A stretch of 64,000 bases of DNA from Escherichia coli (GTDB lineage Bacteria; Pseudomonadota; Gammaproteobacteria; Enterobacterales; Enterobacteriaceae): NCBI RefSeq assembly GCF_016026235.1, contig NZ_CP065613.1, one strand, 5' to 3'. Positions 1,675 through 50,009 of the stretch are shown one piece after another. Numbering within the stretch: the first letter of the stretch is position 1; the number at the start of each line of letters is the position of its first letter. The translations under genes and the position numbers were made by a program. Below the pieces are notes generated by a model. It saw only the letters and a program-made list of their open reading frames with translations. It was not told the origin of the DNA and made no database searches.

Positions 1675-3100
1675 TAATGCCAGTCAGTTAAGCAACTGAC
1701 TGGCTCTTTTTCGGGGCTGTGGGGTATTTCCAGGGCCTCTCCTTTACCACTCTCGGGAAGGCCCTTCCCCTTCTCGTCGGTAATTTCACAAGTTGTCCCA
1801 TACTTGCAAGATCGCGCATCAGCTCCGGTATACGTCCCGGTGAAGCGCCCTGCAATGTCATCAGCATTCTCATCACCATTCCGCATGATTCTGAGAAACT
1901 CAGTTGATTCGGCCAGTAACCTTTCAGATGTTCCGCCATTTTAATCATCTGATATCTCACCAGATTATAAGCCAGTAAGACACCCCACAGCTCTTGCTCC
2001 ACAAGCTCCGGCTTTTTACTTCTCAGCGTCAGCCTGCTCAGTTGCATCGTCTGTTTTATCTCCCTGTATCCCAGTTCGATTTCCCAGCGATGACTGTACA
2101 GATCCGCCATTTCTCCTCCGGGGAAGCGCATGGCGTCCGTCATCGACGTCAGCAGATGGCAGACTTTTCCTTTGCGCGTCACGGTCAGCAGGCGGGCTGT
2201 CACTTCATTTCCCAGTCCCGGCCACTTTTTTCGTGCCTGCGGGCTGGTTTTCAGCTTCACCAGATGATCGCCTTTACCCAGTTTTCTGAGCTCTTCATAT
2301 TGCGCTCCCTTTCTGAGAGGTATCATCCAGTGGCGGTGTTCTCCCGCCAGGCTCCAGGCATTTAACAGTCCCAGTGAGTAATAACCTTTATCCATTAACG
2401 TCAGAGTGTTATCGCCGGTTTGTTCTATAAGTTGCTCAGCAAGCTCATTTTCGCTGTTCTTCATCGTGCCGAAGGCTGCAGCCGTCAGCAGATGGCTGGT
2501 CAGTTCCATCTGGCAGACCATTTTGACCTGCGGGTAGAGCGCCGGGTTCCCGGCATGTGTCTGGCGGGGGAAGGCTGCATCGTTCTCTGGTGTATCCGGT
2601 GTGCGCCAGAACACACCATCGATGGCCAGCAGGGTCAGGCCGCACCAGTGCGGATGCGGCGTGGCGTTATGCCAGAGCTGCGCTGTTTTCGTGAACACGC
2701 GGCGGACAGCCTCACTTCCCAGGCGCTGGCGGGCCTGAATAACGGCACTGGGGGCAACGAAGGGGCGATTGCCCGGCAGCATGATGTCCAGGCGATTCAC
2801 AATCTGGTGAAGAGGTTCTTTACGCTCAAGCGCCATGCCAACAATACACCAGACCATCATTTCGAGGGGAAGACGGCGCTTGCGTAGCGTTACAGTACCT
2901 GATTCGGCAAGGCAACGAGAGATGAGTTCGGGGTCGAGGTAATCCCCCAGAGAAGTCAGTGGGTTACGCAGAGAATCGTAACGGGATACCAGATCAAGAG
3001 CCTGTCCAATGTGCATAAAAAAATCCGGAAACAAGTGAGCGTTTCCGGATTCTTACACAGCCACTGGATCGGTCAACTGATCCTTAACTGATCGGCATTA
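1675..3100 (-). mobile_element. IS4: IS4-type insertion sequence, copy 1 (1426 bp, 18-bp imperfect terminal inverted repeats)
   Basis: Ends TAATGCCAGTCAGTTAAG (1675-1692) and reverse complement of 3083-3100 TAATGCCGATCAGTTAAG match 16/18; single long transposase ORF; length 1426 bp equals canonical IS4 as I recall it; flanked by 13-bp direct repeat. Confidence 0.85.
1688..3016 (-). CDS. insG: IS4 transposase (442 aa from ATG at 3016; ORF track extends to an upstream TTG at 3034)
   Basis: Protein begins [20 protein letters not shown]... as I recall for IS4 InsG; contains the IS4-family YREK-type C-terminal region ([16 protein letters not shown]). Confidence 0.85.
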
Positions 3101-3113
3101 CGGCACATTGTCG
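3101..3113. repeat. 13-bp target-site duplication, right copy (CGGCACATTGTCG)
   Basis: Exact repeat of 1662-1674 immediately after the right IS end. Confidence 0.85.
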
Positions 3114-3222
3114 GCGTTTTTTTTCGGACCTTGTGAGTCATTTTGATTAATGGTAGCGTCGCTTGTCAATGTAATTTGTTGATACATAATATTTATATAT
3201 GATTAATCAACGGATGATTCAC

Positions 3223-3987
3223 ATGAAGAATACTAAATTACTGCTGGCGATTGCGACCTCTGCAGCATTACTGACAGGGTGTCAAAATACCCACGGTATT
3301 GATACCAATATGGCTATCAGCTCCGGTTTAAATGCCTATAAAGCAGCAACATTAAGCGATGCCGATGCAAAAGCGATTGCCAATCAGGGCTGTGCCGAAA
3401 TGGACAGCGGCAATCAAGTCGCAAGTAAATCCAGCAAGTACGGTAAACGTCTGGCAAAAATCGCCAAAGCATTGGGTAACAATATTAATGGCACGCCGGT
3501 CAACTATAAGGTTTATATGACCAGCGACGTCAACGCATGGGCGATGGCGAACGGCTGTGTCCGTGTCTACAGTGGCCTGATGGACATGATGAATGACAAC
3601 GAAATTGAAGGTGTTCTGGGCCATGAACTGGGCCACGTCGCGTTGGGTCACTCGCTGGCTGAAATGAAAGCTTCTTATGCGATCGTTGCCGCACGCGATG
3701 CCATTTCAGCTACCAGCGGTGTGGCTTCCCAGCTTTCCCGCTCACAATTGGGTGATATCGCAGAAGGCGCTATTAATGCTAAATACTCCCGTGATAAAGA
3801 GTCCGAAGCAGATGATTTCTCCTTTGATCTGTTGAAGAAACGTGGCATCAGCACCCAGGGGCTGGTTGGCAGCTTTGAAAAACTGGCTAGTCTGGATGGC
3901 GGTCGCACCCAGTCCATGTTTGACTCTCACCCACCATCAACAGAGCGTGCGCAACACATCCGTGATCGTATCGCCTCTGGTAAGTAA
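3223..3987 (+). CDS. ycaL: putative periplasmic M48-family metalloprotease lipoprotein
   Basis: ORF 3199-3987; likely start MKNTKLLLAIATSAALLTGC (lipoprotein signal with lipobox LTGC); HELGH zinc motif present (GHELGHVALGH). Confidence 0.85.
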   Translation: MKNTKLLLAIATSAALLTGCQNTHGIDTNMAISSGLNAYKAATLSDADAKAIANQGCAEMDSGNQVASKSSKYGKRLAKIAKALGNNINGTPVNYKVYMTSDVNAWAMANGCVRVYSGLMDMMNDNEIEGVLGHELGHVALGHSLAEMKASYAIVAARDAISATSGVASQLSRSQLGDIAEGAINAKYSRDKESEADDFSFDLLKKRGISTQGLVGSFEKLASLDGGRTQSMFDSHPPSTERAQHIRDRIASGK

Positions 3988-4159
3988 ATCATTGTCATCT
4001 TTCGGGCTGGTCTTCTGCCAGCCCGCTATAATTGCGCAATAAATCCCCATCTGAATACAGACAAAACTGGTTTTTGCACACAACGTTAACGATTTGTGGC
4101 GTCGGCGCGTATAATGCGCGCGGTTATGTTAACGGTACGCCTGTTTTAAGGAGATAAAG

Positions 4160-4843
4160 ATGACGGCAATTGCCCCGGTTATTACCATTGATGGCCCAAG
4201 CGGTGCAGGGAAAGGCACCTTGTGTAAGGCTATGGCGGAAGCATTGCAATGGCATCTGCTGGATTCGGGTGCAATTTATCGCGTACTGGCATTGGCGGCA
4301 TTACATCACCATGTTGATGTTGCGTCAGAAGATGCGCTGGTACCGCTGGCATCCCATCTGGATGTACGTTTTGTGTCAACCAATGGCAATCTGGAAGTGA
4401 TCCTCGAAGGGGAAGATGTCAGCGGCGAAATTCGTACTCAGGAAGTGGCGAATGCAGCTTCACAAGTCGCGGCATTCCCACGCGTTCGTGAAGCATTATT
4501 GCGTCGCCAACGCGCGTTTCGCGAATTACCAGGCCTGATTGCCGATGGCCGCGACATGGGAACAGTGGTATTCCCTGATGCGCCAGTGAAAATTTTCCTT
4601 GACGCCTCCTCGGAAGAACGTGCGCATCGCCGCATGCTACAGTTGCAGGAGAAGGGCTTTAGTGTTAACTTTGAGCGCCTTTTGGCCGAGATCAAAGAAC
4701 GCGACGACCGCGATCGTAACCGAGCGGTAGCGCCACTGGTTCCGGCAGCCGATGCTTTAGTGTTGGATTCCACCACCTTAAGCATTGAGCAAGTGATTGA
4801 AAAAGCGCTACAATACGCGCGCCAGAAATTGGCTCTCGCATAA
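4160..4843 (+). CDS. cmk: cytidylate kinase
   Basis: 227-aa ORF with P-loop [11 protein letters not shown]; upstream of rpsA as in the cmk-rpsA operon. Confidence 0.93.
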
Positions 4844-4953
4844 GCGACCGAATTTGCAGTACCCCCGTTGCAATGGAATGACAGCGGGTATGTTAAACAA
4901 CCCCATCCGGCATGGAGCCAGGTGGACGTTAAATATAAACCTGAAGATTAAAC

Positions 4954-22200: not shown

Positions 22201-23744
22201 CTGACTCGGCAGAAATGCTTAGCGGTAACAGCGATCTCAACGAAAAACTGCGTGAACGTCTGGAACAGGCGGAAGCGGAGCGTACCCGCGCTCGTGAAGC
22301 GTTGCGCGGTCACGCAGCGCAGTTGAGTCAGTACAACCAGGTGCTGGCTTCGCTGAAAAGTTCGTATGACACCAAAAGAGAGCTACTTAACGATCTGCAA
22401 CGTGAATTGCAGGATATCGGCGTGCGTGCTGATAGCGGGGCAGAAGAGCGGGCACGTATTCGCCGTGACGAGTTGCACGCACAACTGAGCAATAACCGTT
22501 CCCGCCGCAATCAACTGGAAAAAGCGCTTACATTCTGCGAAGCGGAGATGGACAACCTGACCCGCAAACTGCGCAAGCTGGAGCGGGATTACTTTGAGAT
22601 GCGCGAGCAGGTAGTGACCGCCAAAGCGGGCTGGTGTGCGGTGATGCGCATGGTGAAAGATAACGGCGTTGAGCGCCGCTTACACCGTCGTGAGCTGGCT
22701 TATCTCTCCGCTGATGATTTGCGTTCCATGTCGGATAAGGCGTTAGGTGCGCTGCGTCTGGCGGTGGCGGATAACGAACATCTGCGCGACGTGCTGCGCA
22801 TGTCGGAAGATCCGAAACGTCCGGAGCGTAAAATTCAGTTCTTCGTGGCGGTTTATCAGCATCTGCGTGAACGTATTCGTCAGGATATTATTCGTACCGA
22901 TGATCCGGTGGAAGCTATCGAACAGATGGAGATCGAACTTAGCCGTCTGACCGAAGAATTAACCTCCCGTGAACAGAAACTGGCGATCAGTTCCCGCAGC
23001 GTGGCGAACATCATTCGCAAAACCATTCAGCGCGAGCAGAACCGTATCCGTATGCTCAACCAGGGGTTGCAGAACGTATCGTTTGGCCAGGTGAACAGCG
23101 TACGTCTGAACGTGAACGTACGTGAAACGCACGCCATGCTGCTGAATGTGCTCTCTGAACAGCACGAGCAGCATCAGGATCTGTTTAACAGCAACCGCCT
23201 GACCTTCTCAGAAGCGCTGGCGAAACTGTATCAACGTCTTAACCCGCAGATTGATATGGGGCAGCGCACGCCGCAGACCATTGGCGAAGAACTGCTGGAT
23301 TACCGCAACTATCTGGAAATGGAAGTTGAGGTTAACCGTGGTTCCGATGGCTGGTTGCGCGCAGAGTCTGGTGCATTGTCGACCGGTGAGGCGATTGGTA
23401 CCGGTATGTCGATTCTGGTGATGGTGGTACAAAGCTGGGAAGATGAATCTCGCCGCCTGCGCGGTAAAGATATCTCTCCTTGCCGCCTGCTGTTCCTCGA
23501 TGAAGCCGCGCGACTGGATGCTCGTTCTATCGCCACGCTGTTTGAATTGTGTGAACGTTTGCAAATGCAGCTCATCATCGCAGCGCCGGAAAATATCAGT
23601 CCGGAAAAAGGCACCACCTATAAACTGGTACGTAAAGTCTTCCAGAATACCGAACATGTTCACGTCGTCGGCCTGCGAGGATTTGCGCCGCAACTCCCTG
23701 AAACGCTTCCAGGAAGTGACGAAGCGCCTTCCCAGGCGAGTTAA
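19284..23744 (+). CDS. mukB: chromosome partition protein MukB (SMC-like condensin)
   Basis: 1486-aa ORF, Walker [10 protein letters not shown], long coiled-coil region; start overlaps mukE stop (TAATG). Confidence 0.96.
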
Positions 23745-23750
23745 AATGAA

Positions 23751-23780
23751 GGCGGCAGCAATGCCGCCTTTTCTTTTTCC
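23751..23780 (+). terminator. rho-independent terminator of mukB
   Basis: ggcggcagcaatgccgcc hairpin followed by ttttcttttt. Confidence 0.75.
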
Positions 23781-23809
23781 GAAAACTCCGTTTCTGCACT
23801 AAAAAAGTG

Positions 23810-23822
23810 GCACATTACGGCG
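23810..23822. repeat. 13-bp target-site duplication, left copy (GCACATTACGGCG)
   Basis: Identical 13-mer at 23810-23822 and 25249-25261 abutting IS ends. Confidence 0.85.
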
Positions 23823-25248
23823 TAATGCCAGTCAGTTAAGCAACTGACTGGCTCTTTTTCGGGGCTGTGGGGTATTTCCAGGGCCTCTCCTTTACCACTC
23901 TCGGGAAGGCCCTTCCCCTTCTCGTCGGTAATTTCACAAGTTGTCCCATACTTGCAAGATCGCGCATCAGCTCCGGTATACGTCCCGGTGAAGCGCCCTG
24001 CAATGTCATCAGCATTCTCATCACCATTCCGCATGATTCTGAGAAACTCAGTTGATTCGGCCAGTAACCTTTCAGATGTTCCGCCATTTTAATCATCTGA
24101 TATCTCACCAGATTATAAGCCAGTAAGACACCCCACAGCTCTTGCTCCACAAGCTCCGGCTTTTTACTTCTCAGCGTCAGCCTGCTCAGTTGCATCGTCT
24201 GTTTTATCTCCCTGTATCCCAGTTCGATTTCCCAGCGATGACTGTACAGATCCGCCATTTCTCCTCCGGGGAAGCGCATGGCGTCCGTCATCGACGTCAG
24301 CAGATGGCAGACTTTTCCTTTGCGCGTCACGGTCAGCAGGCGGGCTGTCACTTCATTTCCCAGTCCCGGCCACTTTTTTCGTGCCTGCGGGCTGGTTTTC
24401 AGCTTCACCAGATGATCGCCTTTACCCAGTTTTCTGAGCTCTTCATATTGCGCTCCCTTTCTGAGAGGTATCATCCAGTGGCGGTGTTCTCCCGCCAGGC
24501 TCCAGGCATTTAACAGTCCCAGTGAGTAATAACCTTTATCCATTAACGTCAGAGTGTTATCGCCGGTTTGTTCTATAAGTTGCTCAGCAAGCTCATTTTC
24601 GCTGTTCTTCATCGTGCCGAAGGCTGCAGCCGTCAGCAGATGGCTGGTCAGTTCCATCTGGCAGACCATTTTGACCTGCGGGTAGAGCGCCGGGTTCCCG
24701 GCATGTGTCTGGCGGGGGAAGGCTGCATCGTTCTCTGGTGTATCCGGTGTGCGCCAGAACACACCATCGATGGCCAGCAGGGTCAGGCCGCACCAGTGCG
24801 GATGCGGCGTGGCGTTATGCCAGAGCTGCGCTGTTTTCGTGAACACGCGGCGGACAGCCTCACTTCCCAGGCGCTGGCGGGCCTGAATAACGGCACTGGG
24901 GGCAACGAAGGGGCGATTGCCCGGCAGCATGATGTCCAGGCGATTCACAATCTGGTGAAGAGGTTCTTTACGCTCAAGCGCCATGCCAACAATACACCAG
25001 ACCATCATTTCGAGGGGAAGACGGCGCTTGCGTAGCGTTACAGTACCTGATTCGGCAAGGCAACGAGAGATGAGTTCGGGGTCGAGGTAATCCCCCAGAG
25101 AAGTCAGTGGGTTACGCAGAGAATCGTAACGGGATACCAGATCAAGAGCCTGTCCAATGTGCATAAAAAAATCCGGAAACAAGTGAGCGTTTCCGGATTC
25201 TTACACAGCCACTGGATCGGTCAACTGATCCTTAACTGATCGGCATTA
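23823..25248 (-). mobile_element. IS4: IS4-type insertion sequence, copy 2 (1426 bp)
   Basis: Offset of 22148 bp from copy 1; same terminal repeats (23823-23840, 25231-25248); all ORF-track translations inside it are identical to copy 1. Confidence 0.85.
23836..25164 (-). CDS. insG: IS4 transposase (442 aa)
   Basis: Identical protein to the copy at 1688-3016. Confidence 0.85.
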
Positions 25249-25261
25249 GCACATTACGGCG
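25249..25261. repeat. 13-bp target-site duplication, right copy (GCACATTACGGCG)
   Basis: Exact repeat of 23810-23822. Confidence 0.85.
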
Positions 25262-25443
25262 CGCTTTTCTTTAAACTTCTTTACATTAGGTTATGTAAAA
25301 ACGTATCGGCGTTTATATACTGAAGATAAGCCTGATGAGTAACAGGCTTGCTCGTCATACTTTCGTGAGTATTGGCGTTGTACAGGCAAGTCGTAAAATA
25401 ACAGCCTGGCTATTCAGAGTATGATAAAAACAGGGGGCAAGGG

Positions 25444-27291
25444 ATGTTGCTTAATATGATGTGTGGTCGTCGGCTGTCGGCAATCAGTTTGTGCCTGGCC
25501 GTAACATTCGCTCCACTGTTCAATGCGCAGGCCGATGAGCCTGAAGTAATCCCTGGCGACAGCCCGGTGGCTGTCAGTGAACAGGGCGAGGCACTGCCGC
25601 AGGCGCAAGCCACGGCAATAATGGCGGGGATCCTGCCATTGCCTGAAGGTGCGGCAGAAAAAGCCCGCACGCAAATCGAATCTCAATTACCCGCAGGTTA
25701 CAAGCCGGTTTATCTTAACCAGCTTCAACTGTTGTATGCCGCACGCGATATGCAACCCATGTGGGAAAACCGTGATGCTGTTAAAGCCTTCCAGCAACAG
25801 CTGGCAGAGGTGGCGATTGCCGGTTTCCAGCCGCAGTTTAATAAATGGGTAGAGTTACTGACCGATCCTGGTGTTAACGGGATGGCACGCGACGTGGTGC
25901 TCTCTGATGCGATGATGGGCTATCTCCATTTCATTGCAAATATTCCGGTCAAAGGCACTCGCTGGCTATATAGCAGTAAACCTTATGCGCTTTCAACGCC
26001 GCCGCTTTCGGTGATTAACCAATGGCAGCAGGCGCTGGATAAAGGTCAATTGCCTACGTTTGTTGCAGGACTGGCACCGCAGCATCCGCAATATGCGGCG
26101 ATGCATGAATCGTTACTGGCCTTACTCAGTGACACCAAACCGTGGCCCCAACTGACCGGCAAAGCAACGTTGCGCCCAGGGCAGTGGAGTAACGACGTAC
26201 CGGCGTTGCGCGAAATATTGCAACGCACAGGCATGTTGGACGGGGGGCCGAAAATTACTCTACCTGGCGATGACACGCCAACTGACGCGGTAGTCAGCCC
26301 ATCCGCTGTTACTGTTGAAACAGCAGAAACTAAGCCGATGGACAAGCAAACGACGTCTCGTAGTAAACCTGCGCCTGCCGTTCGTGCCGCCTACGATAAT
26401 GAACTGGTGGAAGCCGTTAAACGTTTTCAGGCATGGCAAGGATTGGGGGCAGATGGTGCTATTGGCCCGGCAACGCGTGACTGGTTAAACGTAACGCCTG
26501 CCCAGCGTGCTGGCGTGTTGGCACTCAACATCCAGCGATTGCGCTTGCTGCCAACAGAGCTTTCTACCGGGATCATGGTTAACATTCCGGCCTATTCGTT
26601 GGTCTACTATCAGAACGGCAATCAGGTGCTGGATTCGCGAGTCATTGTCGGTCGCCCCGATCGCAAAACGCCGATGATGAGCAGTGCCCTTAACAACGTA
26701 GTGGTAAACCCGCCGTGGAACGTACCACCAACTCTGGCACGCAAAGATATTCTGCCGAAAGTGCGCAACGATCCGGGATATCTCGAAAGCCATGGCTATA
26801 CGGTGATGCGCGGCTGGAACAGCAGAGAAGCGATTGACCCATGGCAGGTTGACTGGTCTACAATCACGGCCTCGAATTTACCGTTTCGCTTCCAGCAGGC
26901 TCCAGGCCCACGGAACTCGCTGGGGCGCTATAAATTCAATATGCCGAGTTCAGAGGCCATTTATTTGCATGACACGCCGAACCACAATCTGTTCAAGCGT
27001 GATACACGCGCATTGAGCTCAGGCTGTGTACGAGTGAATAAAGCTTCCGATCTGGCGAATATGCTGTTGCAGGATGCAGGCTGGAATGACAAACGTATTT
27101 CTGATGCGCTGAAGCAGGGTGATACACGTTACGTCAATATTCGGCAGTCGATTCCGGTGAATCTCTACTACCTGACGGCCTTTGTTGGTGCAGATGGTCG
27201 TACCCAGTATCGTACAGATATTTACAATTATGATCTGCCTGCGCGATCCAGCTCGCAAATCGTATCGAAAGCGGAACAATTAATCAGGTAA
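25444..27291 (+). CDS. ldtD: L,D-transpeptidase (formerly ycbB)
   Basis: 615-aa ORF with N-terminal signal peptide; C-terminal YkuD-type motif region (HDTPNHNLF...SSGCVRV). Confidence 0.9.
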
Positions 27292-30119: not shown

Positions 30120-31208
30120 TTAGAACTGGTAAACGATACCCACAGCAACGGTGTCGTCAGAACCTACGCCCAGTTTGTTGTCAGAATCGATCTGGTTGAT
30201 GATGTAGTCAACATAGGTGGACATGTTTTTGTTGAAGTAGTAGGTTGCGCCCACTTCAAAGTAGTTCACCAGATCAACATCACCGATAACTTCTACGTCT
30301 TTCGCTTTAGATTTGGTGTAAGCGATGGACGGACGCAGACCGAAATCGAACTGGTATTGCGCAACTAACAGAACGTCTTGCGTTTTGTTGGCGAAGCCGC
30401 TGATGTTTGTAAATTTATTAGTGATCGGCGTAGCGTTACGCGTTTCACCGTAGTTCGCTGCCAGGTAGATGTTGTTCGCATCATACTTCAGACCAGTAGC
30501 CCACTGTTCAGCTTTTTTACCGTTGCCAAGAAGTTGAGCTTCTTGCAGGTTGGTACGGTCAGCTGCACCATAAGCACCAACGATACCAAAGCCTTCGTAT
30601 TCGTAGCTGATAGAACCGCCAACACCGTCGCCGTTAGAGCGGCGTGCAGTGTCACGCTCGTTTTTACCCAGGTACTGAACAGCGAAGTTCAGGCCATCAA
30701 CCAGACCAAAGAAGTTGGAGTTACGATAGGTAGCAACGCCGCCAACACGACCAACGAAGAAGTCATCGCTGTATGCAGTATCACCACCAAATTCTGGCAG
30801 CATATCGGTGTAACCCAGTGCATCATAAACCACACCGTAGTTACGGCCGTAATCGAAAGAACCAACGTCAGCGTATTTAAGACCCGCGAATGCCAGACGC
30901 GTTTTGTTACCAGTTTGAGCGTCAGCGCCTTCAGAGTTGTTACCCTGGAAGTTATATTCCCACTGACCATAACCGGTCAGATCGGAATTGATTTGAGTTT
31001 CCCCTTTAAAACCAAGACGGGCATAAGTTTTGTCGCCGTTTCCGCCGTAACTGTTTACACCATTGTCTTTAGAAAAATAATGCAGACCGACAGCTTTACC
31101 GTACAGATCTACTTTGTTGCCATCTTTGTTATAGATTTCTGCAGCGTTTGCAGTACCTGCTACTAACAGAGCAGGGACGATCACTGCCAGAATATTGCGC
31201 TTCATCAT
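30120..31208 (-). CDS. ompF: outer membrane porin F
   Basis: 362-aa [51 protein letters not shown]-terminal ...VGIVYQF. Confidence 0.97.
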
Positions 31209-31319: not shown

Positions 31320-31425
31320 GCAGGCATCTTTCCATTCAAACTAACGTTTCGCTACCGTGAAAGTGCTACAAAGATAAAGATTTGGTTTCAAAAAGAAAAA
31401 TATGTAACCAAAAGTAAAATTTAAG
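31320..31425 (-). promoter_or_regulatory. ompF promoter region with OmpR-binding sites
   Basis: Reverse complement contains TTTTCTTTTTGAAACCAAATCTTTATCTTTGTAGCACTTTCACGGTAGCGAAACGTTAG, which I recognise as the OmpR F-site region upstream of ompF; exact site boundaries not determined. Confidence 0.6.
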
Positions 31426-48888: not shown

Positions 48889-48998
48889 TACAGGTTCGGA
48901 AAACGTTTGCGTTTTTTTTGCCGCAGGTCAATTCCCTTTTGGTCCGAACTCGCACATAATACGCCCCCGGTTTGCACACCGGGAATCCAGGAGAGTTC

Positions 48999-50009
48999 AT
49001 GTACTACCCCTTCGTTCGTAAAGCCCTTTTCCAGCTCGATCCAGAGCGCGCTCATGAGTTTACTTTTCAGCAATTACGCCGCATTACCGGAACACCGTTT
49101 GAAGCACTGGTGCGGCAGAAAGTGCCTGCGAAACCTGTTAACTGCATGGGCCTGACGTTTAAAAATCCGCTTGGTCTGGCAGCCGGTCTTGACAAAGACG
49201 GGGAGTGCATTGATGCGTTAGGCGCGATGGGATTTGGATCGATCGAGATCGGTACCGTCACGCCACGTCCACAGCCAGGTAATGACAAGCCGCGTCTCTT
49301 TCGTCTGGTAGATGCCGAAGGTTTGATCAACCGTATGGGCTTTAATAATCTTGGCGTTGATAACCTCGTAGAGAACGTAAAAAAAGCCCATTATGACGGC
49401 GTCCTGGGTATTAACATCGGCAAAAATAAAGATACGCCAGTAGAGCAGGGCAAAGATGACTATCTGATTTGTATGGAAAAAATCTATGCCTATGCGGGAT
49501 ATATCGCCATCAATATTTCATCGCCGAATACCCCAGGATTACGCACGCTGCAATATGGTGAAGCGCTGGATGATCTCTTAACCGCGATTAAAAATAAGCA
49601 AAATGATTTGCAAGCGATGCACCATAAATATGTGCCGATCGCAGTGAAGATCGCGCCGGATCTTTCTGAAGAAGAATTGATCCAGGTTGCCGATAGTTTA
49701 GTTCGCCATAATATTGATGGCGTTATTGCAACCAATACCACACTCGATCGTTCTCTGGTTCAGGGAATGAAAAATTGCGATCAAACCGGTGGCTTAAGTG
49801 GTCGTCCGCTTCAGTTAAAAAGCACCGAAATTATTCGCCGCTTGTCACTGGAATTAAACGGTCGCTTACCGATCATCGGTGTTGGCGGCATCGACTCGGT
49901 TATCGCTGCGCGTGAAAAGATTGCTGCGGGTGCCTCACTGGTGCAAATTTATTCTGGTTTTATTTTTAAAGGTCCGCCGCTGATTAAAGAAATCGTTACC
50001 CATATCTAA
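48999..50009 (+). CDS. pyrD: dihydroorotate dehydrogenase (quinone)
   Basis: ORF 48972-50009; start [28 protein letters not shown]. Confidence 0.95.

Follow-up and report, generated by a model that had tools for sequence, protein, structure and literature searches.

The window analysed was a stretch of 64,000 nucleotides from Escherichia coli (assembly GCF_016026235.1, contig NZ_CP065613.1), in which an insertion sequence occupies the spacer between mukB and ldtD (ycbB). The mukB stop codon lies at 23744 and is followed by an intrinsic terminator (23748..23781, plus strand; −17.8 kcal/mol, z −4.2), composed of the hairpin GAAGGCGGCAGCAATGCCGCCTTT (hairpin proper at 23748-23771) and a T-run, which remained intact upstream of the element. 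IS4 begins 42 bp past this terminator, covers positions 23823-25248 (1,426 bp) and carries its transposase on the minus strand. The element abuts the left copy of a 13-bp target-site duplication, GCACATTACGGCG, at 23810..23822, while the right copy of the same sequence lies at 25249..25261, that is, from −78 to −66 relative to the ldtD transcription start. A perfect 13-mer would appear at two fixed positions by chance with a probability of about 4^-13 = 1.5e−8. On the other side, 195 bp separate the IS4 end from the ATG of ldtD (25444). This gene (25444..27291, plus strand) was intact and encodes a protein of 615 aa (NF007891, 1199 bits), whose exact sequence is widespread in E. coli assemblies, and all 47 window genes that were checked (ldtD and 46 others) were full length. 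When IS4 and one copy of the repeat were removed, a 260-bp mukB-ldtD spacer was obtained, identical to that of IS-free E. coli. An earlier note on this DNA had described a second copy of IS4 after the mukB terminator, with a perfect 13-bp duplication, about 195 bp before ldtD and with the transposase antisense to mukB. All these coordinates hold, the minus-strand ORF was confirmed, and the direct copy at 1675-3100 showed 100% identity to the element along all 1,426 bp.

The element at 23823..25248 (minus strand) is a complete IS4. Its terminal inverted repeats are 18 bp long and match at 16 of 18 positions: IRR, on the transposase 3′ side, is TAATGCCAGTCAGTTAAG (23823..23840), complementary at 16/18 positions with 25231-25248, where IRL, CTTAACTGATCGGCATTA (25231..25248), lies on the transposase 5′ side and faces ldtD. 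Both are equal to the ends of the K-12 IS4. A single ORF was found between them, an intact InsG-type transposase gene (23836..25164, minus strand; 442 aa plus stop), recognized by Pfam (Nterm_IS4 PF13006, 114 bits; DDE_Tnp_1 PF01609, 111 bits), by NCBIfam NF033592 (303.8 bits, cutoff 115) and by the Y(2)R(3)E(6)K (YREK) motif at residue 307. The copy annotated in K-12 (4502090-4503515 of NC_000913.3, InsG) has the same length of 1,426 bp, the same terminal sequences and a single transposase ORF, and its target-site duplication also falls within the range of 11-13 bp. However, the two copies occupy different chromosomal locations and differ in 6 of 1,426 bases (99.6% identity) and in 4 of 442 amino acids. 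Length, ends, transposase, duplication size and near-identity thus all place the element in IS4 (IS4 family, IS4 subgroup), and matching copies are named 'IS4-like element IS4 family transposase' in RefSeq. Of 5,426 complete E. coli genomes, 2,686 contained IS4, and a single genome could hold as many as 32 copies. Copies 100% identical to that of the window appeared in a few human E. coli strains of the enteroinvasive type and on large plasmids of these strains. This identity, and the lack of a complete E. coli genome with both IS4 copies placed as in the window at >98.9% identity, had raised the suspicion that the window came from Shigella, which found no support, as the 47 genes checked are all intact. 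The element is a full-length, apparently functional copy. Moreover, its intact ORF and ends, the presence of two identical copies in the window and the empty site of a near-identical relative suggest, at the sequence level, recent transposition activity.

Both ends of IS4 contain terminator-like hairpins. Just inside IRR, a hairpin with a T-run (23827..23859, plus strand; hairpin proper at 23827-23852; −18.7 kcal/mol, z −4.8) faces transcription arriving from the mukB side and is predicted to act as a terminator. At the other end, a hairpin followed by U7 (25167..25202, minus strand; −21.4 kcal/mol, z −5.8) lies directly upstream of the transposase ATG and probably blocks read-through from outside. 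These end hairpins would stop transcription crossing IS4, by which the element would behave as an insulator rather than as an activator. Furthermore, where IS4 splits a terminator, as the copy at 1675-3100 does, it may supply a replacement.

To describe the target preference, 11 distinct IS4 sites, drawn from annotated E. coli genomes as well as the window, were aligned on the duplication centre: aroA/ycaL, mukB/ldtD, the mukB terminator, pnp/rpsO, yjbE/pgi, crr/pdxK, typA/yihL, yddM/fdnI, malI/hdhA, fumC upstream and the resident copy of K-12. All of them had an A-tract (−15 to −10) on one side of the duplication centre and a T-tract (+10 to +16) on the other, the centre itself being GC-rich and often symmetric, with duplications of 11-13 bp (mukB/ldtD and the 10 other sites). 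The pattern AAA-N20-TTT was reportedly described for IS4 targets by Mayaux et al. in 1984. The mukB-ldtD target and the 10 other sites all follow AAA-N20-TTT and have the centre of the duplication between the A-tract and the T-tract, in agreement with the AAA-N20-TTT pseudo-palindrome given as the IS4 target preference (De Palmenaer et al. 2008, PMC2266710). The motif GGCACATT, present in both window targets, was considered as a recognition signal and rejected, as its registers differ and it is absent from the other nine sites; the common feature is the spacing of the A-tract and the T-tract. Regarding secondary structure, six of the seven IS4 sites that were folded were strong terminator-like hairpins (−14 to −19 kcal/mol), while the mukB-ldtD target was a weak, degenerate dyad (−7.7 kcal/mol, z −1.7) with correctly spaced A6 and T4 tracts. 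The other IS4 targets were mostly genuine terminator hairpins, unlike this one, which folds weakly. According to the mechanism proposed, IS4 would have transposed into the mukB-ldtD spacer because this spot matches its preferred target, namely an A-tract, a GC-rich and partly symmetric centre of about 19-20 bp and a T-tract, and staggered cuts 13 bp apart would have given rise to the flanking duplication. The chemistry would presumably be cut-and-paste, by analogy with IS10 and IS50 of the IS4 family. As a separate observation, Citrobacter koseri presents a proper A-tract/hairpin/T-tract arrangement, GAAAAGCACC..GGTGCTTTTT, at the counterpart of the E. coli IS4 target (about 590-620 of its locus, columns 208-236 of the alignment). 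The target in E. coli may have arisen by decay of such a second terminator-like element.

The promoter of ldtD was located by means of published mapping and of conservation. By 5′ RACE, Mendoza-Vargas et al. (PMC2760140 supplementary file 3) placed the transcription start of ycbB (ldtD) 117 bp before the start codon (−117) and gave cgttTATATACTgaag as its −10 box. In the window, the mapped start (about 25327) and the −10 box, TATATACT (25314-25321), are present at 25314..25327 on the plus strand, contiguous with ldtD, and the box is conserved across genera. The start lies 79 bp downstream of IS4, whose end is consequently at −79. Between both, a candidate CpxR-like box, GTAAAGAAGTTTAAA (25270..25284, minus strand; −57 to −43 of the ldtD promoter), shows one mismatch to GTAAA-N5-GTAAA. 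It is a sequence match, of a kind not enriched in the window (5 one-mismatch matches found vs. 3.5 expected), and its positions 25271-25284 are invariant in Escherichia, four Citrobacter species and two Salmonella subspecies. Furthermore, the whole spacer was aligned with those of the four Citrobacter species and the two Salmonella subspecies, in which the mukB-ldtD synteny is kept. No conservation with Citrobacter and Salmonella was detected between the mukB terminator and 25266, where a conserved promoter block begins in which TTAAACTTCTTTAC and TTTATATACTG are invariant. Because conservation begins at this position, IS4 lies in the only non-conserved stretch of the spacer and, with the duplication counted, ends 4 bp before the conserved promoter block.

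The leader of ldtD holds a further conserved element, an invariant hairpin AAGCCUG...CAGGCUU (25329-25352, 5′ UTR) appearing right after the transcription start and conserved in Citrobacter and Salmonella. No covariation was observed in it, as the sequence is invariant and hence uninformative in this respect. The hairpin might be connected with the post-transcriptional control reported for ldtD.

Several insertion sequences, such as IS1, IS2, IS5 and IS10, can activate neighbouring genes by means of outward or hybrid promoters. The IS4 of the window resembles them in being close upstream of a stress-response gene, but differs from them in having no detected outward or hybrid promoter and in leaving the native ldtD promoter untouched. 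In particular, a promoter-match scan revealed no outward plus-strand sigma-70-like promoter between 25100 and 25330, and inspection by eye for a hybrid −35/−10 arrangement yielded TTAACT at 25232 as the best −35-like hexamer at the IS4 end, without a −10 partner. An outward or hybrid promoter at the ldtD-facing end was accordingly rejected. The only promoter-like site found at this end (TTGACC-16-AAGAAT with TG; 25197..25224, minus strand), a consensus match presumably serving the transposase, points into IS4 and away from ldtD.

Taken together, the insertion is very probably a consensus-target insertion that leaves the mukB and ldtD transcription units whole and has no effect or a very small one. 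Both units are whole because IS4 lies downstream of the mukB terminator and outside the conserved ldtD promoter block. The insertion would therefore be neutral, or nearly so, for mukFEB and for ldtD alike, and the neutrality for ldtD expression is predicted from this arrangement of sites. The earlier note had proposed that the insertion could change the upstream regulation of ldtD, a claim that found no support, as the start, the −10 box, the CpxR-like box and the conserved block are all downstream of IS4. Likewise, the same note had taken 25249 as the dividing line for its own proposal, and the mapped and conserved promoter elements were all found downstream of it.

A change in ldtD regulation is nevertheless the alternative that survives best, although it is unlikely. 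It could come about by the loss of upstream DNA beyond −79, by the proximity of the divergent transposase promoter or by the blocking of read-through from mukB. Defects in outer-membrane assembly induce ldtD, which forms part of the Cpx envelope-stress regulon (PMC4791840, PMC6428754, PMC4985592, PMC12729407). A regulatory effect is made conceivable by the short distances involved (no more than 22 bp between the IS4 end and the CpxR-like box, and 79 bp between that end and the start), by the promoter-like site of the transposase, located some 105-130 bp before the ldtD start and diverging from it, and by the stress induction of ldtD and the importance of its level (PMC6428754, PMC4791840). Moreover, the sequences upstream of −79 were displaced by 1.4 kb, which could exert a modest effect through DNA topology or through an unrecognised site specific to E. 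coli. Against these considerations, all the mapped and conserved parts of the ldtD promoter remain downstream of IS4, the displaced DNA is unconserved even among close genera, neither an outward promoter nor a hybrid −35/−10 is present, and the strong, intact mukB terminator should leave little read-through to be lost.

The insertion of IS4 between mukB and ldtD is not exclusive to the window. A query spanning the IS4-ldtD junction was covered by at least 80% in 19 of 5,426 complete E. coli genomes, and 18 of them presented the exact junction. In the remaining genome, SW070919, IS4 lay 57 bp farther upstream, within the true mukB terminator, and was flanked by the duplication CGGCAGCAATGCC. 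Among the strains with the exact junction, P27_L1_05.20, GN02350 and SK0189 were examined, together with VL40, which was judged from the ldtD-side junction only. Together with SW070917, these four had the spacer and the left junction of the window, most in the same orientation. However, the four showed a 12-bp duplication, CACATTACGGCG, vs. 13 bp in the window, and differed from it in their IS4 variants and in their alleles of MukB and LdtD. In SW070917, IS4 appeared at the site of the window in the opposite orientation, with a 13-bp duplication. These are read as separate insertion events because duplication length, IS4 variants, orientation and position differ between strains, and by this comparison the mukB-ldtD site has been hit at least three times independently.

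Some of these strains showed additional traits. SW070919 (IS4 at 1944-3369 of its locus) and SW070917 (1821-3246 of its locus) are wastewater isolates from one place with the same MukB and LdtD proteins, harbouring 11 and about 23 IS4 copies, respectively, and IS4 activity is suggested to be ongoing in this lineage. In VL40, positions 2001-4865 of the locus contained IS4 bases 1-488, an inverted fragment of bases 476-1426 and then a complete IS4, a cluster that looks like IS4 inserted into IS4 or like an IS-mediated rearrangement.

The sister copy of the window (1675..3100, minus strand) is 100% identical, in direct orientation, and flanked by its own 13-bp duplication, CGGCACATTGTCG. It lies between aroA and ycaL, in the middle of the aroA terminator hairpin (flanks at 1655-1690 and 3101-3125), whose reconstructed empty site folds at −14 kcal/mol. 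This site was occupied by IS4 in 107 of 5,426 complete E. coli genomes, 39 in the orientation of the window and 68 in the opposite one, and is a much stronger IS4 hot spot than the ldtD site. The two direct copies (1675-25248) bracket 20.7 kb of largely essential genes, namely ycaL, cmk, rpsA, ihfB, ycaI, msbA, lpxK, ycaQ, ycaR, kdsB, ycbJ, elyC, cmoM and mukFEB. One other E. coli clade presented inverted IS4 copies at the aroA/ycaL and mukB/ldtD sites. In 13 genomes of that clade, the 22-kb ycaL-mukB segment was inverted, with recombinant IS4 copies lacking matching duplications. The two-copy configuration of the window was found in no complete E. coli genome at >98.9% identity over 25 kb, in a search whose ranking favours coverage; up to 99 records of the same search had an identity of at least 99% in the best-matching piece, which may be the IS4 copy alone. 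Recombination between the direct copies would delete essential genes or duplicate the 20.7-kb block, while inversion is possible where the copies are inverted, as in the other clade. Separately, RMDEC465 had an IS4 inside fiu (1729-3154 of its locus) without matching duplication, one flank of which resembles the aroA/ycaL target, suggesting recombination between IS4 copies in a strain with >30 of them.

Selection for an ldtD-linked phenotype, for instance in clinical lineages exposed to beta-lactams, could be invoked for this recurrence beyond the target preference alone, yet such an explanation is highly improbable. It would draw on the presence of IS4 at mukB-ldtD in several lineages, including many human clinical isolates, and on the ability of LdtD to bypass the penicillin-binding proteins (PMC6478713, PMC12729407). 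However, the mukB-ldtD site fits the general IS4 target pattern, and the aroA/ycaL site, which is unlinked to ldtD, was occupied five times more often (107 genomes). In addition, both IS4 orientations occur at the ldtD site, most of the 18 exact-junction genomes belong to one clade with the same proteins, and the genome collection is biased towards clinical isolates. It is just as hard to credit that the repeated capture of IS4 at −79 was favoured through shifted basal or stress-induced LdtD levels, and hence through peptidoglycan 3-3 cross-linking and beta-lactam tolerance.

The insertion was further assessed within its own lineage. The exact MukB protein of the window was found in 33 blocks of the assembly collection. 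One of these assemblies, GCA_902503985.1, had flanks 99.98-100% identical to those of the window and an empty mukB-ldtD site, while the mukB-IS4 junction of the window was also found in GCA_001907535.1 and SRR13627093, two independent assemblies of the same lineage. The contig of GCA_001907535.1 measures 21,191 bp, as would be expected if a short-read assembly had broken in both IS4 copies. The wrong placement of a repeat between mukB and ldtD during assembly has a negligible probability and was rejected: although the 100% identity between the two IS4 copies of the window is the kind of condition that leads assemblers into error, each copy is flanked by its own, different perfect 13-bp duplication, the empty site reconstructs exactly, and the mukB-IS4 junction is common to independent assemblies, the site being also occupied in finished genomes. 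Judging from these comparisons, the insertion is real, given the mukB-IS4 junction shared by two independent assemblies. It is also recent, since the site is empty in a near-identical relative, and is polymorphic in the lineage.

The insertion is thus real, but nothing out of the ordinary. Neither the element nor its target preference is of a new kind, and the same holds even for the insertion site, annotated as it is in finished RefSeq genomes. A literature search retrieved no paper linking IS4 with ldtD, ycbB or mukB, nor any linking IS4 with the aroA/ycaL inversion, and the absence of a discussion of IS4 at ldtD reflects the ordinariness of the insertion. As its position is explained by the known IS4 target preference and the ldtD promoter is whole, the insertion matters little. 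In practical terms, short-read assemblies break at the mukB-ldtD spacer and at the aroA terminator because IS4 inserts there recurrently, at the aroA terminator above all. Moreover, natural near-isogenic genomes with and without the element exist for testing IS effects on ldtD.

Finally, two other features were observed in the window. An Rfam scan of its whole length yielded nothing near the IS4 insertion, the only family reaching the gathering score being the PyrD leader (RF02373, 97.9 bits) at 48931-49004, upstream of pyrD. The ompF gene, which is Cpx-repressed, lies at 31208..30123 on the minus strand, and a CpxR-box-like sequence with one mismatch was found about 200 bp upstream of it, at 31404-31418.
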